From a virus (taxonomy: Duplodnaviria > Caudoviricetes), in IMG/VR virus record IMGVR_UViG_3300027903_000008, positions 1 to 57,433 of that record: a DNA stretch of 57,433 nucleotides; one strand, written 5' to 3'. The first letter of the stretch is position 1; every line of letters begins with the position of its first letter. Below the pieces are notes generated by a model. That model ran no database searches. It saw nothing but the letters and a program-made list of their open reading frames with translations, and was not told the DNA's origin. A program made the position numbers and the translations under genes. Positions 14,583 to 56,978 of this stretch are shown here, piece by piece.

Positions 14583-15617
14583 TCAAGCCCCGTCGCCGCC
14601 AAGGATATATGTGTTCGCGGCTACCGCTACGATCGTGATCAGGCTGTTCTGTCCGAAGGTGCTGGTGAAGCCGTGCGGGTTTAGGAGGAGAGTGGCGCCG
14701 CCGCCTGCGGCGACGGTCACGGCGCTAGAGGTCATCTGGACTAGGCCGCACTCGAAGCTCGCCGGCAGACCGGAGGGGATCGTGACGGTGCAGCCGGCAG
14801 CGTTCGTGCAAGTCAATATGTTCTGGTTGTCACTGGAGAGGAGAGTGCGCGTCGTCGTCGAGACGACAATGATGTTGCTGGTGCTGGATGGTCCAGTGTA
14901 GCCGGTCGGCCCAGTCTGACCGGCGGTTGAGCCAGTTGGACCGGTGGGACCGGCAGCGCCAGTAGAGCCGGCGGCACCGGTGCTACCTGCGCCAGCAGAG
15001 CCAGTGGGTCCTGTGGCCCCAGTGGCTGCGGCGGCGCCGGCCCTGCCGGTAGGACCAAGCGCACCAGTAGAGCCGGTAGGGCCAGTAGAGCCGGTAGCCC
15101 CTACGCCGGGACCAGTAGGCCCTGCTCCGCCGATAGGACCGGTGAAGCCGGTGGGTCCTGTGGTGCCTGTCAGTCCGACTGGACCGATATGCCCAGTGGT
15201 GCCGGTAGGCCCAGTGAAACCGGAGGGACCTAGAGGACCGGTGTAACCGGTCGGGCCAGTTACACCGGTAGGCCCTATGCCGCCGGAGCCGGCGGGTCCG
15301 ATCGCGCCAGTAGGACCAGATGGCCCGGTGGCGCCGGTAGTGCCAGTGGCACCAGTTACGCCGGACGGCCCTATACCGCCGGTAGGTCCGGCTCCGCCCA
15401 TTACCCCGGCCGGTCCGGTCACTGTGCTGGCGGGACCAGTGTCGCCGGTCGGGCCGGTCGGCCCACCGGACGGGCCGGTGGGGCCTGTGGCGAATCGGCC
15501 TGCCTGGATATAACCAGATATATGGAACTGCGCCGGGTCCCCTTCGAAGGCCGGCCCCATCTGCCGGATGGGAAAGCCGGTGTCAGACTGCTGAAACGGC
15601 CCCGTCACGTTTCTCAT
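14583..15617 (-). CDS. Collagen-like (Gly-X-Thr) fibre protein
   Basis: Long GPT/GAT triplet tract; C-terminal [12 protein letters not shown]...NTYILGGD domain. Confidence 0.9.
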
Positions 15618-15706
15618 CGGGAGACCCTTGACATTTTCCTAAACAGCATTATATGGGGGCGACCCCTTGGGGGTACACCCTCGACAAGCGTATATCGGTC
15701 GGTACG

Positions 15707-20046: not shown

Positions 20047-20364
20047 TCACGGCATACGGTCGAATACCGCGTCTTCCAGCGTCTCACGCGGGGAGCTTCG
20101 CTCCCCAATCACGCGAATGTAAGGTGAGCCAAACAGATGCCCGCCCTTCGGGCCTAGATCCGTCTCGTAAGTCGCGATCACACTGTAGACGTATATACCG
20201 GCCTTCACCGGTACACGAACTCGCTCCGGGTCGCTCTTCCATCTCCGGGTCGCGCCGTTGCGACGCAGTTGCCACCACCTTGTCGTCACTCCCAACTTCA
20301 TCGCGATCTCAAGCCGACCACTGTCTAGCAGCTCGTCGACATTGTGCCGAGTAATCTCTGTCAT
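20047..20364 (-). CDS. Early hypothetical protein
   Basis: AACCACGGAG RBS; WQLRRNGATRRWKSDPERVRVPVKAG. Confidence 0.7.
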   Translation of the reverse strand: MTEITRHNVDELLDSGRLEIAMKLGVTTRWWQLRRNGATRRWKSDPERVRVPVKAGIYVYSVIATYETDLGPKGGHLFGSPYIRVIGERSSPRETLEDAVFDRMP

Positions 20365-20410
20365 AGCCTTCGCTCCGTGGTTGAGGGGCGGCATAGCCGC
20401 CCACCACACT

Positions 20411-20439
20411 ACATGGTGACAGCGGCACACGATGTCAAG
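20411..20439 (-). promoter_or_regulatory. Early promoter
   Basis: CTTGAC-N17-CCATGT. Confidence 0.55.
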
Positions 20440-20460: not shown

Positions 20461-20601
20461 CTAGTGTCGGAGCATGGTTTCGCGCTCAATAATCTCCCAG
20501 CGGAGCGCAACTACCGCGCAGACTGCCCAACTCTCTCCGCTGAGATAGGCGGGTGAGGACTCGGCGAGCTGAAGTAGGTATCCGAGTTCTCGCATGGTCA
20601 T
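20461..20601 (-). CDS. Small early hypothetical protein
   Basis: MTMRELGYLLQLAES...; GGGAGG RBS; ATGA coupling. Confidence 0.5.
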   Translation of the reverse strand: MTMRELGYLLQLAESSPAYLSGESWAVCAVVALRWEIIERETMLRH

Positions 20602-20786
20602 CGCGTATCCCTCCCGTTGATAGGCTCGCCCCGCGCAGCAGCGGTAAACCGCCGCGCATCGAAATTAGGGTTGCTGCCCGCCAACTCGGAAGCGAAGTGA
20701 GATACGAGTGTTGGTGACGCGTCGAGCTTCCGCAGGATGCGCGCTATCTCGACGTAGTGTCGATGGTGAAAGAGTGGTGATCCCAT
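20598..20786 (-). CDS. Early hypothetical protein
   Basis: HRHYVEIA...NPNFDARRF motif; AACCACGGAG RBS. Confidence 0.75.
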   Translation of the reverse strand: MGSPLFHHRHYVEIARILRKLDASPTLVSHFASELAGSNPNFDARRFTAAARGEPINGRDTR

Positions 20787-20813
20787 AATGGTTCTCCGTG
20801 GTTGGTGGAGTGT

Positions 20814-20841
20814 ATATGGGGCGTCGCGCTCGATATGCAAC
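20814..20841 (-). promoter_or_regulatory. Early promoter
   Basis: GTTGCA-N16-CCATAT directly after a terminator. Confidence 0.45.
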
Positions 20842-22275: not shown

Positions 22276-22324
22276 AGCACTATCTCCCTATACTAACCAC
22301 ACAACCATCCTCGCGGTACACTCT

Positions 22325-22353
22325 ATGTGGTGCGACTACCACTACCTGTCAAG
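22325..22353 (-). promoter_or_regulatory. Early promoter
   Basis: CTTGAC-N17-CCACAT. Confidence 0.6.
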
Positions 22354-22359
22354 GAGTTC

Positions 22360-22623
22360 TTACGACAGAACTTCCCAGTCGAACGCGTTCGCATCGGTAT
22401 CCTCTAGCATCTCCGCGTACTCACGCAGCGTCTCCGCCCGACCGATCGCCTCTTCGGCCGCGTCACTCTCTTGCCAACGTTCACTCCTCTCTCCAATATC
22501 CATCTCCCATCCGAGAGCTATCAGCGACATAGCCTCTGACAGCGCCGCTCGCGCCGTTTCATACTCGCCGGCGAGCCTCACCAGCTTCTGGTACTGACCA
22601 TCGGTCAGCTTTGCTATCGACAT
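22360..22623 (-). CDS. Acidic early protein
   Basis: MSIAKLTDG...ERSERWQESDAAEE; 87 aa. Confidence 0.65.
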   Translation of the reverse strand: MSIAKLTDGQYQKLVRLAGEYETARAALSEAMSLIALGWEMDIGERSERWQESDAAEEAIGRAETLREYAEMLEDTDANAFDWEVLS

Positions 22624-22811
22624 CACTGTTCCTCTGTGCATACCGGAACGGAGTGAATTCTCCACTCCATAGGATTGGTCGCAGTGAGTTGTCGCACAAC
22701 AATCGGAAAGCCATTCACATCGTGTCCAATCACTACGTAGCCACTCCCGTCTGCATGAGTCAAAACTGTACCTATCAACAGCGCGCGAAGCTCTCTTTCT
22801 ATCACGATCAT
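22623..22811 (-). CDS. Early hypothetical protein
   Basis: Coupled to both neighbours. Confidence 0.55.
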   Translation of the reverse strand: MIVIERELRALLIGTVLTHADGSGYVVIGHDVNGFPIVVRQLTATNPMEWRIHSVPVCTEEQ

Positions 22812-23056
22812 TCTCCATGGTTGATCGCCGCCTCAAGCTCAGCGACGAAGCGTTGATACTCTGCAAGATGGGCCGTCGCAAGACGCAGCAGCGTAGGACC
22901 CCATCGCTCTACCCCATGCGACATCACAAGCGCGCTGCGCGTCTCAGGTGACATTGTGAATCGACGCATATACGCCTCTGTGTATCCAAGTTGATACGCT
23001 ACCTCACTGAACCTGACGCGCGCGACCGTGCCGCGTATAGCGTCACGAAAGTTCAT
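22808..23056 (-). CDS. Early hypothetical protein (HTH-like)
   Basis: MNFRDAIRG...FSEVAYQLGYT. Confidence 0.55.
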   Translation of the reverse strand: MNFRDAIRGTVARVRFSEVAYQLGYTEAYMRRFTMSPETRSALVMSHGVERWGPTLLRLATAHLAEYQRFVAELEAAINHGE

Positions 23057-23265: not shown

Positions 23266-23332
23266 CCTCGTGCTCTCCTTCCCCCTCTAGATGGTTCCGC
23301 CCCACCGCGATACAAGAGCGTATGTGATTATT

Positions 23333-23534
23333 GGTCCCCTGTCTCTCTTCCCCTGTGGACGCTATAAGGGCGGCGATCCGGCAAAATATTTTCTCGCGCG
23401 CGCGTAATTTGTATAATATATATCATCCTTTTAAGCTTCTTTCCTGTTTTTGCGCAAAATTCTGTCCGATCGATCCGCGCCGCCCTTATAACGTCCAAGA
23501 GAAACAGGGGAAGAGAAACGGGGAACCGAGAAAC
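23333..23534. repeat. Long imperfect inverted repeat with AT-rich core and GAGAAAC iterons (candidate origin/packaging site)
   Basis: 23357-23375 vs 23478-23496 match 18/19 as reverse complements; 23344-23356 vs 23504-23516 match 13/13. Confidence 0.75.
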
Positions 23535-23556
23535 AAAAGACACAAGACATCCGTTA

Positions 23557-23585
23557 TTGACACCGCGCATCCACTGCTCTATTTT
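23557..23585 (+). promoter_or_regulatory. Early promoter
   Basis: TTGACA-N17-TATTTT. Confidence 0.6.
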
Positions 23586-23624
23586 TCACACGAGACCAGC
23601 TCCACGCCACCAGGAAACATCCGC

Positions 23625-24341
23625 ATGAGAGTGACTGCCGAGCAATCCCGCTTCCTCGCCGAGCATGCTGACTTCTTCGAGCGTATCGCTCGCGTCGGCC
23701 CAGGCTTCGCCACCTCCCCAATGACTCTCTTAGAGGCCAGGACCCTACGCCGGTCCTTCTATCGCTTCCGCGACGCTGTAGGGCTTTTCAGCCGCGGCCA
23801 CATGGACACCCGGCTTCGCCGCGGCCGCAGCGGTTCAAACAAGTACGAGTCCGCCGCCACTCCCGAAGAGCGCAGCTACGCTTTCGCCCTACACAGCCGC
23901 CTACTCTCCCTGATGGCAACTTTCGAGCCCGCTACCGATCACTCTTCTACCAGCGAACCATTAATGATCGTTCGCTTCGTCCTAGACCCCATCGTTCGCG
24001 AGGCGCGACGGCTCGATCCCACTTACGAGCGCACCGATGCACTAGCTGCGCGACAAATCGACCCCATGACGCATCACCTGACGGTAGACCCAGACTTAGT
24101 AGGAATGCCGCTCGCCGATTATCCACAAACTGACGCCGACCGCGAGCTAGCCGAAGCGCGATGGCGTGCTTCGCACAAGAACAAGCCCACACCAGCAGAC
24201 CAACTCGGCGACGACCCCATGCGCGGACCCGACGAGTCACCACCACGCGACATCCTCGCCGACATCCGCGAGCGCGACGAACGCGAACGCGTAGCTCGGC
24301 AAGCCGCACTACAACGACAAGCCGAACAACAAAACAGTTGA
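23625..24341 (+). CDS. Hypothetical protein
   Basis: AGGA RBS before MRVTAEQSRF; the track's upstream extension crosses the inverted repeat and is unlikely to be coding. Confidence 0.65.
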   Translation: MRVTAEQSRFLAEHADFFERIARVGPGFATSPMTLLEARTLRRSFYRFRDAVGLFSRGHMDTRLRRGRSGSNKYESAATPEERSYAFALHSRLLSLMATFEPATDHSSTSEPLMIVRFVLDPIVREARRLDPTYERTDALAARQIDPMTHHLTVDPDLVGMPLADYPQTDADRELAEARWRASHKNKPTPADQLGDDPMRGPDESPPRDILADIRERDERERVARQAALQRQAEQQNS

Positions 24342-24366
24342 CAGCGGCTACGCCGCACCATACATC
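24338..24366 (+). promoter_or_regulatory. Promoter
   Basis: TTGACA-N17-TACATC. Confidence 0.55.
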
Positions 24367-24414
24367 TACGATGTACCAAACTGAACCACTCCCACGAAAA
24401 ACAGGATCAGCCCG

Positions 24415-24981
24415 ATGACAGAAACCAGAAGTGCTGTTGCGTCCACGCGATATGACGACGCCGAAGGCGTCGTATCGCTCGCGTTCGTGAATGGCAAGAG
24501 TGTAACGGTCGATGCGAACAAGTTGCCGGAGGCAGTCGCGAACGCCCTATTGCTGCGCGGAATTGCGATGACGCTACGCAACAGCTTCCAGAAGATCGAC
24601 GATATCGACGCTGTCGCACACGCAGCGGCGCTCTGCGCCGCGGATATGCTGTCCGGCAAGTGGAAGCCGGGTCGGACCTTCGGCGAGTCTGCGCCGACCG
24701 ATCTAGAGCGGGCGCTTGCCGAGGCCAAAAAGTGCAGCATCAATCACGTCCGAGACACCTGGCTCCCCCAGTACCTCGAAAATCACACCACAGCCGACCG
24801 CGGCGGTCGCCAGCGAGGCAAGGGAGCGGCTATGGAGGCTCTACAGCGCCATCCGCAGGTCGCCCCTCTATTGGCGCGCTACGCGGCCGAACGCGCACAG
24901 GCGGCGCGCGGAGCCGGCGGCAAGGGCATTCCCTCCCTAGACGAGCTTTCGCCTTCGCCTTCGGCGGAAGCGGCCGAATAG
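24415..24981 (+). CDS. Conserved-type phage hypothetical protein
   Basis: 188 aa; own promoter and RBS. Confidence 0.75.
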   Translation: MTETRSAVASTRYDDAEGVVSLAFVNGKSVTVDANKLPEAVANALLLRGIAMTLRNSFQKIDDIDAVAHAAALCAADMLSGKWKPGRTFGESAPTDLERALAEAKKCSINHVRDTWLPQYLENHTTADRGGRQRGKGAAMEALQRHPQVAPLLARYAAERAQAARGAGGKGIPSLDELSPSPSAEAAE

Positions 24982-25009
24982 CGCTCGCTGGCGCGCGCAC
25001 CATATAAAG

Positions 25010-25153
25010 AGGCGCCGACCGTCGAGCGCGCGTGAGCCGACGGTCGCCTGGGGGAGCGCGCCGATCAGGTTTTTCCGTGGTTGGGCCGATCGGCCGGCTA
25101 CACAGCAGCTCCCTGAGAGGCCCGGTATCCCCTGCCGGGCCTCTCTCCTTTTT
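25010..25153 (+). ncRNA. Candidate sRNA (or long structured 3' UTR)
   Basis: No convincing gene; CCATAT -10-like box upstream; GACCGTCG/CGACGGTC stem; ends in a terminator. Confidence 0.4.
25115..25153 (+). terminator. Rho-independent terminator
   Basis: GAGAGGCCCGGTA-loop-TGCCGGGCCTCTC then TCCTTTTT. Confidence 0.8.
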
Positions 25154-25174
25154 CGCCGCAGGCGAAAAATAGGG

Positions 25175-25203
25175 CTTGACGCTCGCCGCGCCTCGCCCTA
25201 CAT
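25175..25203 (+). promoter_or_regulatory. Promoter of replication operon
   Basis: CTTGAC-N17-CTACAT, close to the alphaproteobacterial RpoD consensus. Confidence 0.7.
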
Positions 25204-25247
25204 ATATCACCACAAGAGTTCACATGGGAGAGGGCGAGGAGCGAGAA

Positions 25248-25451
25248 ATGAAACGCAACCTATCTCACGCAGTGGGCGATTACTTGACCGAGAACCTGAG
25301 GCGAAATCTCGTGCAGTGCAGGAACCCCATTACTGATCGCTGGACGAAACTCAGCACACGAAACGGTAGGATCGTAGCCGTCAAAAAGACGAAGGGGGCC
25401 TATCGGCACGTAGCAAAGTTTGAGGACTGGCTTGTGTCGAGGGGGTTTTGA
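25248..25451 (+). CDS. Small basic protein
   Basis: GAGGAG RBS; VQCRNPITDRWTKL...KKTKGAYRHV. Confidence 0.65.
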   Translation: MKRNLSHAVGDYLTENLRRNLVQCRNPITDRWTKLSTRNGRIVAVKKTKGAYRHVAKFEDWLVSRGF

Positions 25452-25741
25452 ACGTCGAGACGCTTACCATGACGGGCGACAGCGTCGTAGACGCCGCAAT
25501 GCGTCTCTACCCCGACGTACCGCGCGGCCGGCACGGCCCCACCAAAGGCCCGCTGCATCGTCTAGCGCTCGCGCTCGACGTAGGCCCTAGCACAGTCCTA
25601 AAGTGGGCGCGCGGAGCCCACCCGGTGCCGAGCTGGGCCATCCGCGAAATCGACCGGCTTCTGTCTGCTTCGCAGACAACCACGGAGCAGCCACCATGCC
25701 CAACCACCTTATCATCACCACGCGCATCATCGAATTCCTAG
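25448..25741 (+). CDS. HTH (XRE-like) regulator
   Basis: RLALALDVGPSTVLKWARGAHPVP. Confidence 0.7.
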   Translation: MNVETLTMTGDSVVDAAMRLYPDVPRGRHGPTKGPLHRLALALDVGPSTVLKWARGAHPVPSWAIREIDRLLSASQTTTEQPPCPTTLSSPRASSNS

Positions 25742-25785
25742 CAGGCGTAGTGCTCGCTGCGCTCGCACTCTCGGTACTACCGTGA
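25696..25785 (+). CDS. 29-aa transmembrane peptide
   Basis: AACCACGGAG RBS; MPNHLIITTRIIEFLAGVVLAALALSVLP. Confidence 0.5.
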   Translation: MPNHLIITTRIIEFLAGVVLAALALSVLP

Positions 25786-28290: not shown

Positions 28291-28329
28291 GTCGAGCTTC
28301 GCTCGACCGCGACCACGGAGCAACCACAC

Positions 28330-28620
28330 ATGGCCCTACCACCGTTTGACGAGCGTCCCCCAGTATCCTATAAGCCGCCGCGCCAGCTACACGTATCCTT
28401 CGGTGGATATCACTTCCATCATGTCACTGAGATCGTCGTCAGCGAGAGCCAACGTCTCAGCAACTTCACTACTCGCACAATCACTCTAAAAGGCGAAGCT
28501 GGTGAAGCTGACGCAGTCATCAATGTCTATAGTAGCAACATCAGCAACCCACCGCACATTATGCTAATCACCCCGACCACGTACGTAGACTTACACAATC
28601 ACTGGCCAGATGAGGACTAA
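28330..28620 (+). CDS. Hypothetical protein
   Basis: GACCACGGAG RBS; 96 aa. Confidence 0.65.
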   Translation: MALPPFDERPPVSYKPPRQLHVSFGGYHFHHVTEIVVSESQRLSNFTTRTITLKGEAGEADAVINVYSSNISNPPHIMLITPTTYVDLHNHWPDED

Positions 28621-31149: not shown

Positions 31150-31590
31150 ATGCCACGGCGACCGCCATCTCTATTAGAGATTGCTTTCATAGAGTATCTT
31201 TACTGGAATGAAAGAAAATCACAGATAGCCATTGCCAAAATGCTCGATCGTTCACAACCTAGCGTAAGCTCTATTATGGCATTATACGGTATTTCAAGTG
31301 AAATAAACAGACGGAGAGAACAAAGAGGCGCACATAACCATAACTACAAGGATGGGTTATCAAGAAGCACTGTCAGAAGGATCACAAAAAGACTAATTGA
31401 AGCTACAGATCGACCATTAAACAAATGTGAGAGATGCAACGAGACATTCAATATCGGTCTTAATAGACATCATAGAGACCGTGATAGGTCCAACAACGCT
31501 ATAGCCAATATAGAATTATTGTGTACGTCTTGCCATATGAGAGAACACAGCGACAGTCGTATACGTGATTCCCGTGGGAGGTACACATGA
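31150..31590 (+). CDS. HTH + HNH endonuclease (possible homing endonuclease)
   Basis: CERC...HHRDRDRSNNAIANIELLCTSCH; AT-rich; overlaps the polymerase start. Confidence 0.85.
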   Translation: MPRRPPSLLEIAFIEYLYWNERKSQIAIAKMLDRSQPSVSSIMALYGISSEINRRREQRGAHNHNYKDGLSRSTVRRITKRLIEATDRPLNKCERCNETFNIGLNRHHRDRDRSNNAIANIELLCTSCHMREHSDSRIRDSRGRYT

Positions 31591-33386
31591 GGCTGGTTCA
31601 AAGTGGTCCGTCTGATGCTAAGTATTGTATTATAGGGGAGGCTTTGGGCGCAGAAGAGGAGCAGCTAGGCCGTCCCTTCGTCGGCTCTAGCGGCCACGAG
31701 CTTTACCGCATGCTAGAAGAGGCCCGCTGGCTGCCGCCTGGCACAGCCGAGCGCATCATCCGCGACCTATACAGGCGCAGCTTCATCGAGCTTACGACGG
31801 CGCTGGACGACGCCAGCATCTTCATCACCAACGTCTGCCATGAGAGACCTCCCAACAATGACATCAACGCTTTCTTCTGCCGAAAAACCGAAGCCAAACG
31901 CAACGGCGTCGCTCCGTTACTCGATCGTTTTCCCAACAGATCTATCCGAGAGGGCATTGTACGACTTAACGAGGACCTTCATCGACTTAAACCGGCGTTT
32001 GTGCTTGCTCTTGGAGGAACAGCACTTTGGGCGCTTACAGGTACGAGCGGAATTACTAAATGGCGCGGGTCTATCCTTGCTATCGGCGAACATCTACACG
32101 GGGCTGCCGGAATAAAGCTAGTCCCTACGTTCCACCCCGCAGACATCCTCCGCGAGTGGCCACATCGCGCCGTCGCAGTACAAGACATGCGCCGCTCCCT
32201 TCGGGAACGTGAATTCCCAGAAATTCGTCGTCCTACATACCACTTCATCACAAAGCCGAGCTTCGCTGAGGCAACCGATTACCTCACGGAGCAGGCCGAC
32301 AACCCGGAGCACGCCGATGTCCCTCTTGTCGCCGATATTGAGACTCCTCATGGCTGGCGCAATCTGCCTGGTCATATTGCCTGTATTGGGTTTGCTTCTA
32401 GTCGTACAGATGCTATTTGCATCCCTCTTATGTGTCTGGACGATCTTGAAGGGTACTGGCCAATGGAGCAGGAGACGCAGATAGTCCTAGGCATACGCCA
32501 TCTCATGACCCAAAGAGCCATGATATTCCACAAAGGCATCTTTGAGTGCCAGCACTTCGCTGCCCACTGGGGCTTCCTGCCTAACTGGCAACATGACACG
32601 ATGGTAATGCAGCATGTGCTCTTTCCTGGCCTACTTGGTGGAAAGATCGATCCTGTTACCGGCCGCGTCGACAAACGCGGCAGCAGCCTCGCACTGTCCT
32701 TTCTATCGAGCATGTACTGCCAATATCACCGGTACTGGAAGGATGACGGCCGCGACTGGAACACCAAAGAGGTGCCAGACGAAGATCAGTGGTGGCGATA
32801 CAACTGTGAAGACTGCGTTCGCACGTACGAGTGCTACGAAGTCCTTCGGCTTTCGTTAGAGCGCGGAGCGCTTTGGGCATCCTATCGTTTTATGATGAAC
32901 CTTGCTGCCCCGGTGCTCTACATGATGCTTCACGGCATGCCCTTCGATCGCGCTACACGCGACGAGTTTCGGGTCGACGTACGTCGTGAGCAGTCCACGC
33001 TCGCGCAGTGGATCAACACCGTCTGCGGCCACGAGCTCAACACTGGCAGTTCGCCGCAAATGCAGTCTCTCTTCTACGAAGATCTTGCCGTCGCGCCGAT
33101 CTACAAGGGCAAGGGCGCTGCGAAGCGGCCCACCCTCAACGTTGGGGCGCTCGACGTGATCGCAAAGCGAGTACCGCTGCTCGCCCCCCTCTGTCACGCA
33201 GTGGCAGACGAGCGTAGCTTAGCGCACTTCGACGAGAACATACTGCGAGCGAAGCTCGACGGCGACGGCCGGATGCGCAGCGAGATAAATCTTACAGGGA
33301 CCGAGACAATGCGCTTCGCCAGCACCGAGACACCCTTCGGCACTGGCCTCAACCTACAAAATATTAACCGCATGCCAGAGGAGTAA
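31587..33386 (+). CDS. DNA polymerase A, N-terminal part: UDG-like + 3'-5' exonuclease + thumb
   Basis: UDG family 4-like motifs GEALG, PFVGSSG, TFHPA; exonuclease motifs VADIET, HDTM, YNCED; ends GTETMRFAS...NLQNI. Confidence 0.9.
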   Translation: MRLVQSGPSDAKYCIIGEALGAEEEQLGRPFVGSSGHELYRMLEEARWLPPGTAERIIRDLYRRSFIELTTALDDASIFITNVCHERPPNNDINAFFCRKTEAKRNGVAPLLDRFPNRSIREGIVRLNEDLHRLKPAFVLALGGTALWALTGTSGITKWRGSILAIGEHLHGAAGIKLVPTFHPADILREWPHRAVAVQDMRRSLREREFPEIRRPTYHFITKPSFAEATDYLTEQADNPEHADVPLVADIETPHGWRNLPGHIACIGFASSRTDAICIPLMCLDDLEGYWPMEQETQIVLGIRHLMTQRAMIFHKGIFECQHFAAHWGFLPNWQHDTMVMQHVLFPGLLGGKIDPVTGRVDKRGSSLALSFLSSMYCQYHRYWKDDGRDWNTKEVPDEDQWWRYNCEDCVRTYECYEVLRLSLERGALWASYRFMMNLAAPVLYMMLHGMPFDRATRDEFRVDVRREQSTLAQWINTVCGHELNTGSSPQMQSLFYEDLAVAPIYKGKGAAKRPTLNVGALDVIAKRVPLLAPLCHAVADERSLAHFDENILRAKLDGDGRMRSEINLTGTETMRFASTETPFGTGLNLQNINRMPEE

Positions 33387-34543: not shown

Positions 34544-35284
34544 ATGAAGCCAGCCACGACACCACCGGTGCGGCGCCTGTTCATCCCCTCGCTGGGCTAT
34601 CTACTCTTTGAGGGTGACCTTGCTCGCGCCGATGCACAGATTGTCGCCGCCGAGAGTGGTGACGCGGCCCTTCTGGCCGCATTTCGAGAGAACCTGGACA
34701 TCCACACCGACAACGCGAAGTGGTGTTACAGCAGTCACTTCGTGACTGCGGAGCAGCGACAGTGGAATAAGAATGGCGTCCACGCCGTCGACTACGCCTG
34801 TAAGGCGCGCACCCTCGCTACCACATTACACGTCTCCGTGAGACGCGCCGAGGAATGGATAGACCGATGGTTCACGCTGCACCCGTCTATCCTCGATTGG
34901 CACAAACGAGTCGATCGCGAGCTACGGCTTCGCCGCACCGTGAGCAATATCTACGGCTTCCGCAAATATTACACGGACCGCCTCGACGCTCTGCTGCCGC
35001 AGGCCCTCGCATGGATCGCGTCTTCGACAGTCAGCATAACGATCAATAAGGCACTGTTCCGTATCTACAGCGAGCTGCCGCTCGTGAGGCCTCTATTGCA
35101 GATCCACGACAGCGTTCTCGGGCAGGTTCCACTAGACCAGGCTGACGCTCTCCTACCGTCTATCCGAGAGGCAATGCAAGTCGAGATACCTTACTCTCAA
35201 CCACTCGTCATCCCCGTGACGCTCAAAGTCAGCACCAAATCATGGGGGGACATGGAAACATGGCCGTGGAAGGAAGCAGCATGA
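34544..35284 (+). CDS. DNA polymerase A, C-terminal catalytic (palm/fingers) part
   Basis: VRRLFIP, motif A GDLARADAQ, motif B RQWNKNGVHAVDY, motif C LQIHDS. Confidence 0.9.
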   Translation: MKPATTPPVRRLFIPSLGYLLFEGDLARADAQIVAAESGDAALLAAFRENLDIHTDNAKWCYSSHFVTAEQRQWNKNGVHAVDYACKARTLATTLHVSVRRAEEWIDRWFTLHPSILDWHKRVDRELRLRRTVSNIYGFRKYYTDRLDALLPQALAWIASSTVSITINKALFRIYSELPLVRPLLQIHDSVLGQVPLDQADALLPSIREAMQVEIPYSQPLVIPVTLKVSTKSWGDMETWPWKEAA

Positions 35285-40104: not shown

Positions 40105-42657
40105 TCAGTGCAGATGGAGGCCAGTAAGGGCGCTGCTCACGTTTACGTGATAAAACTGTAGCTCAGTTACGCCTGCCGGTAGTGGCGTAGGCACGGCAGG
40201 ATGAAGTGCACGCATCTGGGTAAGCGCCGTGGTCAGGAACGCTGGGTCGTAGGTCCCTTGCTCCGCAATCGGCGAACTCGTCGAGCCCGGCGGCGGGTTA
40301 AAGGTTGATTGCCCATTGAGAAGTTCGCTCGTATCCGCCGGGCTCGATGTATCGCTGAAGAACGTCGAAGACGGCCCGACCATGCCGATGCCGGCGACTT
40401 TCCCGCCCGTGCCGTTGCCAGTGATGTGAGTCGTACCGTTAGAGAACAACCCAGTGAGGGCCGCGACGCCTTGGAAGTTATTGAGCGCGAGGGCGACCTG
40501 ACCTCCCGGTGCGGTCATGTTCACCGCAGAGCCGGCATAGGTGAAAGCGCTAATCCCGGTAACGTTGGCGACCAAAACAGTCTCGGGTGTACCTTCGGCC
40601 CACACGGCGACAAGACTGACATGGGCTCCATTCGAGACGCCAAAATTCTGGTAATCGTTCGCGATAGACCCACCCCAAACGTTAGTCGTACCGCCCTGCC
40701 AATTGCCAGCTGCGGCTTGCGCACCCCCAGTTATAACTGTGCTAACCGTCCCCACTGCGCTCGCCGCCACTGCGAAAAGACTATGAATTTCAACCTGTGT
40801 GTAGTCAAGAGCGTCGACAAAAAGATTGGTCTGAGACGATGAGAGAAGAGGCTCAAGTATGAAGACGCGGCTGCCGACTTGATCGACATTGGTCGCCTCG
40901 ATGCCATTGGCGATATTGATCCCGTTGACCAGAAAATCACGTAAGATACACTTGTTGGGTCCGATGAGCTTGATCACCGGCCCAGACGATGCCCCATTGG
41001 CCCAGTTGAGCGCGGAATAATAGCCGTCACCGATTATCTGAATGCCACTGTTGACAGTGGCGGGGACAGTGATAGTTGAGGTCAGACTATACGATCCCAC
41101 GGGAATATGGACAACCGGATGTACGGATGATCCGGTCTGCTCGGCATTCGCGGCGTTCGTTACTCCCTGTTGGACGGAGCAAGGGGCAACCGTAGTACAG
41201 GCCGTGCCGGACCCGGTTGGAGATGTCTCGAAGACCGTGCGACCGAGGTTCGGCGGCGTGCCCGGCAGGATAGGTGGGCGCGGGTTGATCGCAGCGCGAG
41301 GGACTACCTGGTCGTCTATCGAATGGCCGTGGAAGCCGACGCCGGACGCATTGAACGTTTCCGACGGCGTGATAGTAAAGATGTTCCCGATCGAGAACAG
41401 ATCTCCATAGGACGTTGCAACTGGCCCAGTTGTGCCGGTCAAGCTCCTAATTATATTGTCGATGAATACAACCGGGCCGTAGTCTACCTCGAAGAGTGCT
41501 CCGTTCGTGACCACCGTCGTATCAAGAACCGTATTGCCTTGAATGACTACACCGTTCGATGAGTTTGAGCCACCCCCGTACCAGAAACGGTTGGACCCCG
41601 ACGAATAGTTGTCCATGATATCGAAGGCGCCAGTATTCCCATAATTCATATCTGCGAAGGTCGAACCTTGGAAGATACTGTTGAGCACATGAAAATTACC
41701 AGCCCCTGGAGAGTTGGAGACACCAATGGCATTATTCTGAAAAAGTGAATACCATACAAACATGTTCAGCGCATTAAAGTTCTTCATCAATATACCATAA
41801 GATGTATTATTGATGAACTTCCCTCGCAGCATCGAGGTCTCGGAGCATCCAAAATCTATATTGCCACAACGGACCCCAATACCAACGTTTTCAAATACAT
41901 CGTCGGAGTATTCATTGGCGGTATCAAAATTACTGCTCGTATTATCTGACTTGGACTGATCAACAGCGACGACAGCATTGCCTTGACCATTGAAGGTTAG
42001 GCGTGCAAAACGCGAATAGGCGTTCCCGTTGAGGTAGAGCATAGATTCGTTGACGCTCGTCATCGCCTCCGGTCCAATTGTCAGCGGTATAGAGCCATTA
42101 TTAGAGTACGGGGCAATTTTATAATTGTTGCCTCCAAGATTAGTTACGACCACGGTAGGGTTCGGCACTCCCGTTCCGGTAAGTCTTTGCCCTGACTGTA
42201 TAGTCCCGCTGACGCCCGACACCGACAATGTAAAAACGCACGAGGAGGGACATCCCGTCGTAGAGATCGTGCCAGTGAAGTTGGCAGCGGCCACAGCCGA
42301 GTTTCCAGCCCACAGGATAGCCGTGGTAGCCGGATCGGCGCCGATGAGACTAACGTACAGTTGGGCCGCTAGTGTCAAAGTCGAGGTGATCTTATATGTA
42401 CCAGCCGGGAAGTACAGGACTGGCTGAGAAGAGCTAAGCCCATTGAGACACGTTTGGATCGCAGCCGTGTCGTCGGTCGTGCCGTCCCCGACGGCGCCAC
42501 AGGCGGTCTTGACGTTCCTCCAGCTCGGAAACGGCCCGACGAACTCCTCGTCGCTCACTTGCGGCGTACCGCCGAGGATGACATATCCATTGGCTGCTAG
42601 CGCAGCCAATAGGAGACTTGCTGCCGCCGCTACGGTTATGACGAGCCTGCTTGTCAT
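40105..42657 (-). CDS. Pectate_lyase_3-like double beta-helix tailspike/depolymerase with N-terminal signal-like segment
   Basis: [31 protein letters not shown], second repeat [10 protein letters not shown]. Confidence 0.85.
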
Positions 42658-44516
42658 GGGTTCACCGTGGCAAACACTGTGATTTGACCGCTGGCGCTGC
42701 CACTCAGCCAGTTCGACGGGTTGGTAACGATGATCCCAATTCGTTCGCCCGGGTTGAGGGCCGCTGTAGTCACGGTGAGCGTTTGGCTCGTAGCAGCCGC
42801 GCCGTTGGCGTTGAAGCTACCGGTGTGGAGTACCGTCCCGGAGCCGATAGGCACGCCGCCAATCGCTTTGTAGACGCTCATCGTGCCGGCCGTCAACAGT
42901 GGAGTCTCGACGGTAGCGATAATACCTTGGATGGTCATCGCTTGGGTAATGTAGCCAATGAGAGCTCCATTGGGGTTCTGTCCAGGTAGCCAACCGATGA
43001 TGAATGGTATCCGTACCGTGCTTGCGGCAGCCGCCCCGGTCGGCCCAGTGACGCCAGCGCTGCCCTGCACGCCAGCTGTCCCGGTAGGCCCAGTTACGCC
43101 CTGCGCGCCTTGTATGCCGGCGGAACCTGTAAGTCCTCTTGGGCCGGTAGCACCGGTAACGCCTGTGGCGCCAGCTGCGCCAGCCACACCGGCCGTGCCG
43201 GTAGGCCCAGTGCCGCCGGCTGGGCCTACCACGCCCTGCGCACCGGTAGGACCGGTAGAACCTGTAGGACCACCTCCGGTCGGACCAGTCGCGCCCACGC
43301 CGGGGCCGGTAGGCCCTAGCATGCCGGTAGGTCCTGTCGGCCCACCACCGGTAGGCCCGGTCATACCGGTAGTGCCCATAATACCGGTAGCACCCGTAGG
43401 ACCGGTGTTTCCAGTAGCGCCCATCACGCCTGTGGGACCAATAGCGCCGGTCGGCCCTGCCGACGGTCCTGTCGGGCCGGTAGGTCCGCCTCCGGTGGGA
43501 CCGGTAGAGCCAGTGGGTCCTCCGGAGGGGCCGGTTACACCTATGCTGCCGGTCGGACCAGTATTGCCGGTCACGCCTGTCGCGCCAGTGACGCTCGCAC
43601 CAGTGGCGCCTACGGCGCCAGTCGCGCCTGTGACACCGGTCGGACCAATGACACCGGTCGCACCGGTGGCGCCTACGGCGCCAGTAGGTCCAGTAGGCCC
43701 AGTAGGGCCGGTGTTTCCGCCTACGCCTTGCGCACCCGCTGGGCCGGTCGGTCCATTGGTCGGACCTGTCGGTCCGGTAACGCCGATCGGACCAGTTACA
43801 GTAGAGGACGCTCCGGTCGGACCCGTGTTGCCGGTAGGTCCAGCATTGCCCTGTACACCGGCGCGACCGGTAGGTCCTGTCACACCTATTGCGCCGACTG
43901 GCCCAGCCGCTCCGGTCGGTCCTGTAACACTCGCGCCGGACGGTCCCGTCACTGTAGACGCCGCGCCGGTCGACCCAGTCGGTCCTGTACCTGCCGGCCC
44001 AGTATTCCCTGTCAAGCCGAAGGGACCAGTCGGTCCCGCGTTGCCGGTCGGTCCAGTCGCACCAACACCCGGCCCAGTAGGACCAGTAGGACCCATCACG
44101 CCGGTCGGCGCACCACTCGGCCCTGTAGCGCCCGCGGCGCCAGTCGGACCAGCCGCGCCAGTCAGACCGGCCGTACCGGCTACGCCAGTAGCACCGGTAG
44201 CACCAGCCGCGCCTGTGGCACCAACTGCACCGGTAACACCTGCACTACCGGTAGGCCCACCACTGCCAGTCGGCCCGGCAGCGCCGGTTGGCCCCGCTAC
44301 ACCCTGCGGTCCAGCCGTACCAGTCGGCCCCGTCGTACCACCAGCTGGTCCAGTCGGCCCCGTTGCACCGCCAGGCCCACCGTCCGATATATACCCATCG
44401 GTATCCCACACCGCGACATGGCTCGGAGTTACACTGCCAGCCTGTCGTACTGGTGTGCCCGTACTAGTACTTGTTGCGAGCTGTGTCACGAGCGCGGGAC
44501 TTTCATTTTGGGGCAT
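42654..44516 (-). CDS. Long collagen-like (Gly-X-Thr) fibre protein
   Basis: About 450 residues of GPT/GAT/GVT triplets with interruptions; globular C-terminal domain. Confidence 0.9.
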
Positions 44517-44958: not shown

Positions 44959-45855
44959 CTAGTTTGTGTTCACTGCCCATCCTTTGATGGTCAGGTTCGC
45001 TGCTGCGGCGATGCCAGACACGCCAGGAGCCGCGTTGGTCCCACCTGAAAGATCACACGTGCCGTTACTGAGGCCCGCAGCGTCGAGAGCCACGAGAACA
45101 GCATCAATTTCTGACTGGCTAGCAACAGCGCAGCTCCCCAAAAGAACTGTCGACAGCAACGGGGTGTTGGTTATTGTCACGTGGATGAGCGCGCTGTTTA
45201 CCGCCGACAGGCTATTTAGGGCCGTGCATCCAGACACTATCAAGGTGGTTATGGAAAATGAATTCAATGTTAGCGTAAGAATGGCGGTATTGCCGCTGAG
45301 ATCCAGTGTATACGGCCCCGAAAACTGTGCGCCGGTGAGGCGAAGCACATCGACGGTGCCGATCGGTCCACCTGCGCCCGTGGCTCCGGTATCTCCGGTA
45401 GCACCGGTAGCGCCTGCGCCAGTAGGACCTGTCGCGCCTACGCCAGTCGGACCAGTGTTCCCAGTCGGACCAGTTGTGGTAGAAGTTGGCCCAGTGCTTC
45501 CTGTATTGCCAGTAGGCCCCGTGACCGCGGACGCCGCACCAGTAGCACCGGCTGCCCCTGTAGGACCTGTAGCCGCCACTGCGCCCGTAGCGCCAGTAGG
45601 GCCTGTTACGGTAGACGATGCGCCAGTGTGACCTGTCGCACCTGTTGCACCAGTGGCCCCCGTCACAGCCGGTCCAGTAGCTCCCGTTACGGCTGACCCA
45701 GTAGGACCGGTAGGCCCGCCAAATGGACCAGTAGGACCGAGCGGGCCCGCCGGCCCATTGGGACCGGTCGGTCCTCCGCTCGGGCCAGTCGGCCCGGTAG
45801 CGCCAATCATCGGGTTCGCCGGAACCCTTGCTAGTGGCGGACTAGTGTTAGGCAC
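44959..45855 (-). CDS. Collagen-like protein with C-terminal LRR-like domain
   Basis: GPT tract, then [24 protein letters not shown], ending [11 protein letters not shown]. Confidence 0.85.
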
Positions 45856-55150: not shown

Positions 55151-55486
55151 CTATATCCCAAGTACCTGCCGCCAAAGCCGATGCTCTTCTCGATGCAGCC
55201 AAATCCAATTCGCGAGTTTCTCTTCATCCTCAAAGTCGATCTCTTCGAGATCATTGCTGCCGGTGCCGAGCACGTCGTTGGTATTGATATGCATAGTAGA
55301 ATGCATTGCTGCCCATCCTGTCAAGTCCGCATGATTTATAGGCTCTATCGGCAGACTGATGATGCTCCCGCGCTTCTGCCGAAGTGCCGCAGCAGCCACC
55401 TCATTGTGTTCCGCGGCGTTAGCGATTGAAAATTCGCTGAGGTCTGCCGGCGAGGCCGGCACTTTGAAAAGGGTTGCAAGGCTCAC
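55151..55486 (-). CDS. Virion-region hypothetical protein (His-patterned)
   Basis: AEH...MHSTMH...WIWLHREEH. Confidence 0.7.
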   Translation of the reverse strand: MSLATLFKVPASPADLSEFSIANAAEHNEVAAAALRQKRGSIISLPIEPINHADLTGWAAMHSTMHINTNDVLGTGSNDLEEIDFEDEEKLANWIWLHREEHRLWRQVLGI

Positions 55487-56508
55487 TTACCGACTCCAAT
55501 CAAAGGCAACGGACCGATTAAGGCGACTACTGGGACGTATGTGCCGATCAGACAACCAGCTCCGCCATTGCCGCCGATAGAGCTAGACCAGCCACCACCA
55601 CCACCACCACCACCACACAGGCCAGCATTGCCGGCGGAAGCGTTCGATCCTCCTGCACCACCGCCTCCGCCTGAGCCGTGTGTCGCGTCAAGGCCATCCG
55701 TCCCGGCTCCGCCTGCTCCGCCGCCGAAACCACCGCCACCACCACCACCACCACCACCGCTAGATCCGGCTCCGCCAACGGACGAGTTACCAGCTGTTCC
55801 ACCACCGGTCGAGGCAGAATTGTTTCCACCAGCCCCTCCTACCGTTGTCGAGGACGCAGCCCCACCAGCAGAGCCACCACCGGAGCCACCACCGCCCGAT
55901 CCAGAATTACCACTTGCTGTATTGCTACCCGCGCCACCAACGCCGTGGACGCCACCGGCACCGCCCCCACCGCACCCACCATTCGGGGAGCTACTGCTAC
56001 AGTCACCGCCCTTACCACCAGAGTTCTTAGTCGACCCGACGCCACTGCCAGAAGCGCCGCCGGCACCTCCTGTGTTTGCTGCCCCAGCGCCACCGCCTTT
56101 CGCTCCGACTTGAACAGCCGTCCCAGCGATCGAAGCGCAATTGGATGTCGAGTTGCAGATGTAAGTATCACCTCCAGCAGTCGCATTTATCGAACCAGAT
56201 GTCTGTCCTTTCACTCCTGCCGCGCCGACAGCAATAGTGACCGTCCCCGCCAGAGACACGTTCGTACTAGATGAGTATCCACCGCCGCCACCGCCGGCTC
56301 CCCCTTGAGCGCCAGGCCGGTTGCCGCCCCCACCTCCACCGTATGCTTCCCAGCTATTGTTAGCAGAGTTGTAATCACCAGGAATGGAAAGCGAGGTTTC
56401 CCCAGCCGCACAGTAAATGTACTTTGGGTTGGTGCCAGAAGTGATACAAGCTGCCCACGCCGGCAGTGCCGCTACTGCAAAAGCGGCGGCGAGGGCGAGG
56501 CGACGAAT
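55483..56508 (-). CDS. Glycine-rich protein with signal peptide
   Basis: YGGGGGG...GGGGGGYSS glycine-rich domain; RRLALAAAFAVAALPAWA signal; start codon uncertain (ATT at 56508 or GTG at 56571). Confidence 0.75.
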   Translation of the reverse strand: MRRLALAAAFAVAALPAWAACITSGTNPKYIYCAAGETSLSIPGDYNSANNSWEAYGGGGGGNRPGAQGGAGGGGGGYSSSTNVSLAGTVTIAVGAAGVKGQTSGSINATAGGDTYICNSTSNCASIAGTAVQVGAKGGGAGAANTGGAGGASGSGVGSTKNSGGKGGDCSSSSPNGGCGGGGAGGVHGVGGAGSNTASGNSGSGGGGSGGGSAGGAASSTTVGGAGGNNSASTGGGTAGNSSVGGAGSSGGGGGGGGGGFGGGAGGAGTDGLDATHGSGGGGGAGGSNASAGNAGLCGGGGGGGGWSSSIGGNGGAGCLIGTYVPVVALIGPLPLIGVGK

Positions 56509-56510
56509 GG

Positions 56511-56978
56511 CTAGAACTGCGCCCAAGTGATCACCCCTGACACCTGTACACCCGTGGAGAACAGTAGGCACACGTCGAAGTTGGCATTAGCCGTCTTCGC
56601 GATCTGTCCTACGCCGTCGCCCATCGTAAGACCGCCGTTCGCCGCGAACTGCCATCCGGTCGCAGCCGTCGTACCACCAGCCATCCCTGCCGTACTAGTA
56701 TCACACTCAGTGGTAGTCTTGGTACCCTCCACGAGAGCCACATTGACCGCCCCGGCGACCGGACCAATATTGATCGCACAGACATACACCTTCTTCGACG
56801 AAACCTTACTGATCAACTTAAGGCTCGTGGAGCTGCCGGCGTTGTTGATCGGTGTGCTAGTGGTAGCTTGCCCTTGGCAGTACTGTGGCTGCGCGGCGTT
56901 AATGGCCACTGCAGGCTGGGAGATCGTCCAGCAGACTATAAGGGCGACCATCGAGAAGATAGCCGCAGCGATCCGCAT
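56511..56978 (-). CDS. Signal-peptide-bearing structural-region protein
   Basis: [25 protein letters not shown]; KKVYVC...EGT...C...GWQFAANGG. Confidence 0.75.
   Translation of the reverse strand: MRIAAAIFSMVALIVCWTISQPAVAINAAQPQYCQGQATTSTPINNAGSSTSLKLISKVSSKKVYVCAINIGPVAGAVNVALVEGTKTTTECDTSTAGMAGGTTAATGWQFAANGGLTMGDGVGQIAKTANANFDVCLLFSTGVQVSGVITWAQF

Follow-up and report, generated by a model that had tools for sequence, protein, structure and literature searches.

A candidate antisense RNA in a soil phage with a predicted loop complementary to the ribosome-binding motif of a set of early genes

We describe a candidate phage RNA whose predicted hairpin loop is complementary to a motif that includes the Shine-Dalgarno (SD) sequence and recurs ahead of five genes of the same phage. 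The single most likely reading of this element, which we put forward tentatively, is an RNA acting in trans against ribosome-binding sites, either as a free-standing transcript or as the 3'UTR of gene 24415-24981. The window, that is the whole stretch of DNA analysed here, covers a complete IMG/VR virus record (57,433 bp, CheckV completeness 100%, about 59% G+C). The phage is present in two soil-metagenome DNA runs, where both contigs are identical to the window and free of variants; no RNA run is among the sequencing runs listed as holding it. Family scans identified structural genes for a major head protein, a large terminase, collagen-like tail fibres and a pectate-lyase-like spike. On the gene map, small minus-strand genes form a block at 18.1-23.3 kb, an AT-rich divergent gap (23266-23624) lies between the early blocks, and a plus-strand block at 23.6-38.5 kb encodes a PD-(D/E)XK exonuclease, a Sak4-like protein, a split DNA polymerase and a DUF3987 primase. 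Scanning 30 proteins turned up no integrase and no recognisable repressor, and the phage therefore looks lytic. No tRNAs were found.

Several other features of the record were noted. The AT-rich divergent gap holds long inverted repeats (window 23325-23535; 23325-23375 versus 23478-23535, with sub-arms 81-95% complementary) around a TATAAT-rich centre, and this region could be a symmetric operator with divergent promoters, or an origin. The two polymerase genes, 31587-33386 and 34544-35284, match parts 544-985 and 994-1239 of a single PHROG profile of 1445 positions; about 1.16 kb with four small ORFs lies between the halves, which are also apart in distant relatives such as L082. Three tail-fibre genes with collagen-like repeats (14583-15617, 42654-44516 and 44959-45855) are the source of the genome's most repeated k-mers, and a tandem repeat of CCACCACCAC (55592-55750) lies within gene 55483-56571.

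The candidate RNA sits in a gene-free gap of 266 nt (24982-25247) between gene 24415-24981 and gene 25248-25451. The first-pass annotation of this DNA, made from the letters alone, had described a terminator-ended segment with no convincing gene that contains GGTTTTTCCGTGGTTGGG at 25068-25085, and we recovered this sequence at exactly these coordinates. The only ORFs crossing the gap, 24830-25213 (-) and 25032-25172 (+), score -0.10 and -0.17 per codon in codon usage, against an average of +0.056 for the called genes, and both encode products rich in Arg, Pro and Gly; it is therefore fair to say that the segment holds no convincing gene. The terminator was equally borne out by its 13-bp stem and TCCTTTTT tail (Table 1). 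It is the strongest terminator-like site of the whole 57-kb record, with a U tail of five U only; elsewhere such sites occur at chance level, and the sole comparable one is 20883-20863(-). The stop codon is separated from the terminator stem by a spacer of 133 nt with two additional stable hairpins.

The -10-like element upstream of the RNA has no TTG-type box at 16-18 nt that would serve as its -35, and therefore the RNA may simply be the 3'UTR of the 24415-24981 mRNA. Judged from these elements, the candidate could be a weakly or conditionally initiated transcript of about 140 nt or, equally, the 3'UTR of an mRNA of about 780 nt. Exact matches to CCATATAMA occur only at the candidate's -10-like element and at the T1 promoter. 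The pattern CACCAYRYA is present in 10 copies versus 2.95 expected (0/100 shuffles). Three of these form the -10 of TTGACA-type early promoters, at 20410(-), 22324(-) and 24356(+), the last being that of gene 24415, and the candidate's -10-like element is of the same type. The early-promoter family as a whole, TTGACA/TTGCAT/TTGACG-17-(CACCA)YRYA, was seen at 20410-20438(-), 22324-22352(-), 24338-24366(+), 20811-20840(-) and 25176-25204(+). Upstream of the tail-fibre gene 14583-15617 lies CCATATAAT (15648-15656, minus strand), a -10-only element that also has no -35; together with the one before the candidate RNA it possibly represents a second promoter class. A minus-strand transcript of the segment was considered and rejected: we saw no promoter on the minus strand, and read in that direction the strong hairpin lacks a U tail. 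The 188-aa product of gene 24415-24981 matched only itself among 5.8 billion proteins and had no Pfam or PHROG match.

Table 1 Coordinates of the candidate RNA, its surroundings and the predicted target sites in the window.
Feature	Position	Strand	Remarks
Promoter TTGACA-17-TACATC (24338-24366) and ORFan gene 24415-24981	24338..24981	+	mRNA would carry the element as its 3'UTR
-10-like element CACCATATAAA (TATAAA 25003-25008)	24998..25008	+	upstream of the candidate RNA, 2 nt before SL1
5' stem-loop (SL1)	25010..25049	+	in MFE and centroid structures alike
Central domain closed by GGGGGAG/CUCCCU	25051..25114	+	centroid; holds seed hairpin 25060-25094
Seed UUUUCCGUGGUUGG	25071..25084	+	complement of the start-associated motif; 14-nt apical loop in the centroid fold
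Intrinsic terminator	25115..25153	+	stem 25115-25145 with 13 bp, 9 of them G-C pairs; 5-nt loop; TCCTTTTT tail
Next promoter TTGACG-17-TACATA	25176..25204	+	restarts transcription past the terminator; outside the RNA, fixes its 3' boundary
Target T1 CCAACCACGGAGAA	20792..20805	-	7 nt before ATG of 20598-20786, directly after promoter TTGCAT-17-TATACA
Target T2 CUCAACCACGGAG	20373..20385	-	leader of 20047-20364, after promoter TTGACA-17 and a GC hairpin
Target T3 CAACCACGGAG (25677-25687)	25677..25707	+	before ATG at 25696 of a 29-aa hydrophobic peptide
T3 second site GCCCAACCAC	25698-25707	+	just past the start codon
Target T4 CGACCACGGAG	28310..28320	+	9 nt before ATG of 28330-28620, right after hairpin GGTCGAGC-TTC-GCTCGACC
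Target T5 CAACCAUGGAG	22813..22823	-	before GTG of 22623-22805; changed base would give a G:U pair

Folded as RNA, the segment 25010-25153 reaches -79.9 kcal/mol (z -3.65), and none of 200 shuffles was as stable. Three modules are predicted, a 5' stem-loop, a central domain and the terminator. The seed hairpin within the central domain has a stem of GCCGAUC/GAUCGGC plus GGU/GCC and folds alone at -21.2 kcal/mol, and its apical loop in the centroid structure coincides exactly with the 14 nt complementary to T1. All 14 nt of the seed are unpaired with a probability of 0.003 (opening cost 3.6 kcal/mol), its 9-nt core with one of 0.10 (1.4 kcal/mol). An earlier caveat, that part of the seed can form a G:U-rich stem, was correct, as the MFE structure contains that stem.

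The complement of this loop is a motif associated with gene starts. Exact copies of ACCACGGAG number 4 in the window versus 0.53 expected, a count reached by 0/100 shuffles. The 11-mer CAACCACGGAG occurs in 6 copies at up to one mismatch versus 1.00 expected (0/100 shuffles, shuffle maximum 4); at up to two mismatches there is no excess, with 16 copies versus 17.0 expected. Five of the six copies read in the sense direction and place GGAG 7-9 nt from an ATG or GTG, the sixth is the antisense copy at 25073-25083 within the candidate RNA, and all six fall within 20.3-28.4 kb. The excess of the motif and its linkage to starts are real. The single copy away from a start equals the chance expectation of 1.0 at this mismatch level. 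It falls in non-coding sequence, which makes up 15% of the genome, in antisense orientation relative to the sole strand with a terminator there, and it matches the T1 motif over 11/11 nt; the exact sequence CCAACCACGGA shared by the two has 2 copies versus 0.04 expected. The shorter CAACCAC occurs 15 times, with 8/15 copies at -29 to +14 of called starts in sense orientation, and the additional sites at or just past start codons extend the set of possible targets.

The motif includes the SD and keeps a fixed 7-9 nt to the start, and CAACCAC also occurs after starts, which argues for a role at the level of RNA and translation rather than for an operator. Two other explanations of the sense motif were set aside. 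Pairing of CAACCAC with 16S rRNA near helix 45 would have the elements in the wrong order. A CsrA/RsmA-type site (ANGGA in ACGGAG) would leave the antisense copy unexplained.

The pairing proposed in the first-pass annotation was reproduced. The 14 contiguous pairs with the leader of 20598-20786 consist of 13 Watson-Crick pairs and 1 G:U (25071-25084 with 20792-20805, minus strand), and this helix continues with two G-C pairs past a 1-nt bulge. Three further leaders had been said to offer 11-13 pairs, and we counted 13 for 20047-20364 (2 G:U), 11 for 25696 and 11 for 28330 (2 G:U). The SD is covered as claimed, GGAG being included in all four leaders (T1-T4). The leader of 22623-22805 (T5) is a fifth target beyond these four. 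The sites do lie in the early, non-structural region. T1 and T2 stand directly behind sigma-70-like promoters, and T2, T3 and T4 directly behind GC hairpins. The CAACCA core of T1, T3 and T5 lies in predicted hairpin loops with GGAG in the 3' arm, an arrangement that suits loop-loop initiation, and T4 is predicted to be single-stranded. In short folds, the T1 leader forms a loop ACCAACCAC closed by CUCC/GGAG, and the T2 motif is partly paired with an upstream GUGGUG.

Two of these loci have features of their own. Each of T1 and T2 has a promoter to itself, and the strong terminator 20883-20863 precedes T1; these units look independent and moron-like. The T3 product (25696-25785) is a strongly hydrophobic peptide of 29 aa, MPNHLIITTRIIEFLAGVVLAALALSVLP, and its gene overlaps, in a different frame, the 3' end of the weak HTH gene 25469-25741. 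The combination of such a small membrane peptide with a possible antisense RNA is reminiscent of type I toxin-antitoxin logic.

The energy ranking against the phage's leaders, which had been suggested as a check, was carried out by adding the hybridisation energy to the opening energies of both partners in 18-nt windows, over 80 start regions (-35 to +15). The start regions carrying the motif ranked 1, 2, 3, 5 and 11 of 80: T1 came first with -15.5 kcal/mol, followed by T4 (-13.8) and T5 (-12.1), while T3 was fifth with -10.3 at its second site GCCCAACCAC and T2 eleventh with -8.0. T2 is thus a weak predicted target, its site being partly sequestered. Rank 4 was taken by gene 33939 (-10.4) at CCAACCACG, just past the ATG. 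All of these interactions (ranks 1-5 and 11) run through 25068-25087. On a coarser grid the real RNA gave -14.2, -13.6 and -11.1 kcal/mol, a top-3 sum of -38.9. Among 47 dinucleotide shuffles, 0/47 reached its best value, 0/47 its second value and 0/47 its top-3 sum, and 3/47 reached its third value; the top-3 sum of the shuffles averaged -29.3 (sd 4.1), placing the real RNA at z of about -2.3. The real RNA is therefore the best of 48, but not by much, since the best shuffle attained -13.9 against its -14.2. Two simpler scans were uninformative, as plain duplex folding without accessibility returned meaningless long duplexes and a 10-mer scan permitting G:U pairs was dominated by U-rich windows. 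Combining the non-coding place, the orientation, the centroid loop and the 11-nt match to T1, we roughly estimate the probability of such an antisense copy by chance at 0.01-0.05, which is suggestive rather than decisive.

No relative carrying the candidate region was found in phage records, viral or genome contigs, or the protein collection. A megablast search with 19-30 kb of the window found nothing among 50,697 phage records. Scans of viral contigs seeded with the 188-aa, 328-aa and 238-aa neighbour proteins gave no relatives; the same was true of a scan of genome contigs, and of P0010 and alignment A1 when run against viral contigs. Relatives of the primase with 50-62% identity are on metagenome contigs of 1.7-12 kb that stop short of the early region. 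A scan with 15 distant primases led to 80 loci, and the four complete phages of 41-45 kb that we examined from it have no start-associated motif and have only the exonuclease-Sak4-polymerase-primase module in common with our phage. No Rfam family reached its gathering score in the window, and matches at E up to 10 in 24900-25300 were noise only, none of them to C4. The seed 15-mer has 60 exact matches in viral contigs, in unrelated contexts and redundant groups of contigs with no extended similarity. In one of these, an unrelated AT-rich phage (L010:7290-7360; also L012, L028 and L058), an intergenic hairpin of 11 bp with a T run after it has the 15-mer TTTTTCCGTGGTTGG in its loop; we judged this a coincidence because there is no matching start motif there.

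These results partly support the first-pass proposal that one trans-acting sRNA shuts off a set of early genes, in that the segment is gene-free and structured, displays the complement in its centroid loop and ends in a terminator, and in that motif-bearing start regions rank high against it; that it shuts off early genes is what we infer from the sequence. Under this proposal a plus-strand RNA would end at the terminator 25115-25153 and would either start near 25013-25016, giving about 140 nt, or be the 3'UTR of the 24415-24981 mRNA. It would display UUUUCCGUGGUUGG in a hairpin loop that is antisense to (C)CAACCACGGAG with its Shine-Dalgarno GGAG ahead of five small early-region genes, 20598-20786, 20047-20364, 22623-22805, 25696-25785 and 28330-28620. 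The loop would pair in trans with these five leaders, probably through a first loop-loop or loop-single-strand contact, and by covering the ribosome-binding site it would lower the translation, and perhaps the stability, of this gene set. We likewise infer the accumulation of the RNA, its pairing in vivo, repression as the direction of the effect, and the timing.

The main rival is that the segment is an ordinary 3'UTR with the terminator of the 24415-24981 unit, and that the complement is coincidental and has no regulatory effect. We regard this as rather unlikely, although it has several points on its side. Exactly one copy of the 11-mer stands away from a start where 1.0 is expected, and the excess vanishes at two mismatches; GC-rich shuffles already attain -13.9 kcal/mol against some start region; the same 2 kb holds many inverted repeats of 17-22 nt at 76-82%; and the same 15-mer turned up by coincidence in an AT-rich, unrelated phage, again within a hairpin loop. 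What a coincidence accounts for poorly is that the copy extends to 11 exact nt, and to 13/14, with T1 (0.04 expected), that it is non-coding, in the right orientation and exactly in the centroid loop, and that the structured spacer of 133 nt before the terminator is left unexplained.

Two other explanations would place the function of the complement elsewhere. At the DNA level, a phage DNA-binding protein could use the 11-mer as an asymmetric operator or as a site resembling a stoperator; alternatively, the 11-mer could mark a recombination boundary or be the relic of an inverted hairpin-plus-RBS module, and the copy at 25073-25083 would be a further site or a decayed copy in minus orientation. 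The clustering of all six copies within 20.3-28.4 kb would fit, as would the overlap of the T1 copy with the predicted +1 of its promoter, the position of T2 about 25 nt downstream of its -10, and the weak HTH protein encoded at 25469-25741 (Pfam matches below threshold). A relic would also be expected to show GGAG changed to GGAA with no start codon after it, as seen here, and on the minus strand a palindrome GGCCGATCGGCC precedes the copy, much like the GC hairpins before T2, T3 and T4. We nevertheless consider a DNA-level role quite improbable, because the motif includes the SD, keeps its 7-9 nt to the start and has its CAACCAC recurring just past starts, because T3, T4 and T5 have no promoter nearby, and because the similarity never extends beyond 17 nt, unlike that of a duplicated module. 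A role in cis appears least probable, and very much so: the loop would fold onto the start region of the very mRNA that carries it (gene 24415, leader CCCACGAAAAACAGGAUCAGC) or, in read-through transcripts, on the 25696 leader 600 nt downstream, and would tune translation or decay of that single mRNA. The arms 24396-24414 and 25057-25075 do form an inverted repeat of 19 nt at 79%, extendable through CCACG with a 1-nt bulge, and the 24415 start region ranks 6/80, but a dozen other inverted repeats in the same 2 kb are equally good and T1, T4 and T5 pair more strongly. The strong terminator also argues against much read-through to the 25696 leader.

Taking the trans-acting RNA as the preferred reading, the candidate would be a further form of the known antisense control of ribosome-binding sites, with c4 of P1 and P7 as its nearest precedent. 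The c4 RNA arises by processing from the very operon under its control, and its target sites lie in a single mRNA (icd-ant), upstream of an antirepressor gene, whereas the sites here belong to at least five separate genes distributed over both strands (20.4, 20.8, 22.8, 25.7 and 28.3 kb). No ant-like (antirepressor) gene was recognised in family scans of the phage proteins. The candidate is not a member of the C4 family, having no Rfam match and a different target layout. To our knowledge, the phage sRNAs that act on genes of their own phage are few (c4, P4 CI and cis-antisense RNAs), and we know of none that addresses a shared start-site motif across many genes. According to a review (PMC12197685), the c4 antisense RNA of P1/P7 blocks translation through loop-displayed sequences that pair around the ribosome-binding site; the candidate is predicted to be alike as a small phage RNA with a loop-displayed complement to the ribosome-binding site that acts in trans on phage genes. 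The same review describes lambda PreS and VP882 VpdS as short phage RNAs that base-pair with mRNAs, are Hfq-dependent and act mainly on host mRNAs or sRNAs (PMC12197685), unlike the regulon predicted here, which consists of the phage's own genes.

Stoperators are DNA sites for an immunity repressor and have no SD, in contrast to the motif described here, which includes the SD and belongs to a phage with no recognisable integrase or repressor among the 30 proteins scanned. Those of L5 (Cluster A) are described, in a passage of PMC3203893, as many copies of a 13-bp asymmetric intergenic site for the regulation of transcription.

A closer parallel to the motif itself is found in the SAS/ESAS of Cluster K mycobacteriophages. 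According to PMC3203893 and PMC11373665, these are asymmetric motifs with an SD core near the start codons of non-structural genes only; they share one orientation except for a lone reverse copy that is not at a gene start, and some have a promoter or an inverted repeat just upstream. Pope et al., in the part of their text that bears on this, place SAS 3-7 bp from the start codons of non-structural genes and call its function unknown, as do the relevant passages of papers of 2024 and 2025 (PMC12699233, PMC11373665). These papers propose no antisense RNA for SAS; the word 'antisense' occurs 0 times in PMC12699233. Phages of K4 and K8 have few SAS copies or none, according to PMC12699233. The motif in our phage is like SAS in its SD core, in its GGAG at 7-9 nt from the start in transcription orientation (5/5 sense copies), in the confinement of its copies to the non-structural 20.3-28.4 kb, and in its single reverse copy (25073-25083) off gene starts. 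It is unlike SAS in sequence, CAACCACGGAG differing from the 13-bp consensus GGGATAGGAGCCC, and in number, with five sense copies here and 13-19 copies of SAS.

We examined the reverse SAS copies in Cluster K genomes for comparison. Anaya has 16 sense copies and 1 reverse copy, the latter in the 385-nt gp96-gp97 gap. This gap folds with z -5.66, and the reverse copy forms the 10-nt apical loop CCUCCUAUCC of a long hairpin. The gap (L160:34717-35067, record 59716-60066) is conserved in 182 Mycobacterium phage records, near the right end. An invariant TAGACT lies upstream of the hairpin. In an alignment of 7 phages, the outer stem has compensatory changes between Anaya and Niklas; 3 of the 7 have an intact anti-SAS loop, 1 has a loop that differs at two positions and 3 have none. 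In Adephagia, the reverse copy likewise lies in the apical loop of a hairpin, in the gp92-gp93 gap (L167:1948-2379), where late transcription appears to initiate according to a passage of PMC11373665. These unrelated Cluster K1 phages thus offer a parallel of the same design, which proves nothing about the window. It is conceivable, though in our view unlikely, that start motifs serve as 'handles' through which one antisense loop RNA silences a whole early-gene class in both phage groups.

If this were true, SAS, first described in 2011, would gain a mechanism in which a late leader RNA shuts off the translation of early genes, and the Cluster K parallel makes the idea testable in phages of Mycobacterium smegmatis mc2155, for which RNA-seq and recombineering exist. 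For the phage described here, a trans-acting RNA of this kind would provide a compact post-transcriptional timing of a gene class, and it would account for the retention of an extended, conserved ribosome-binding motif in some phages.
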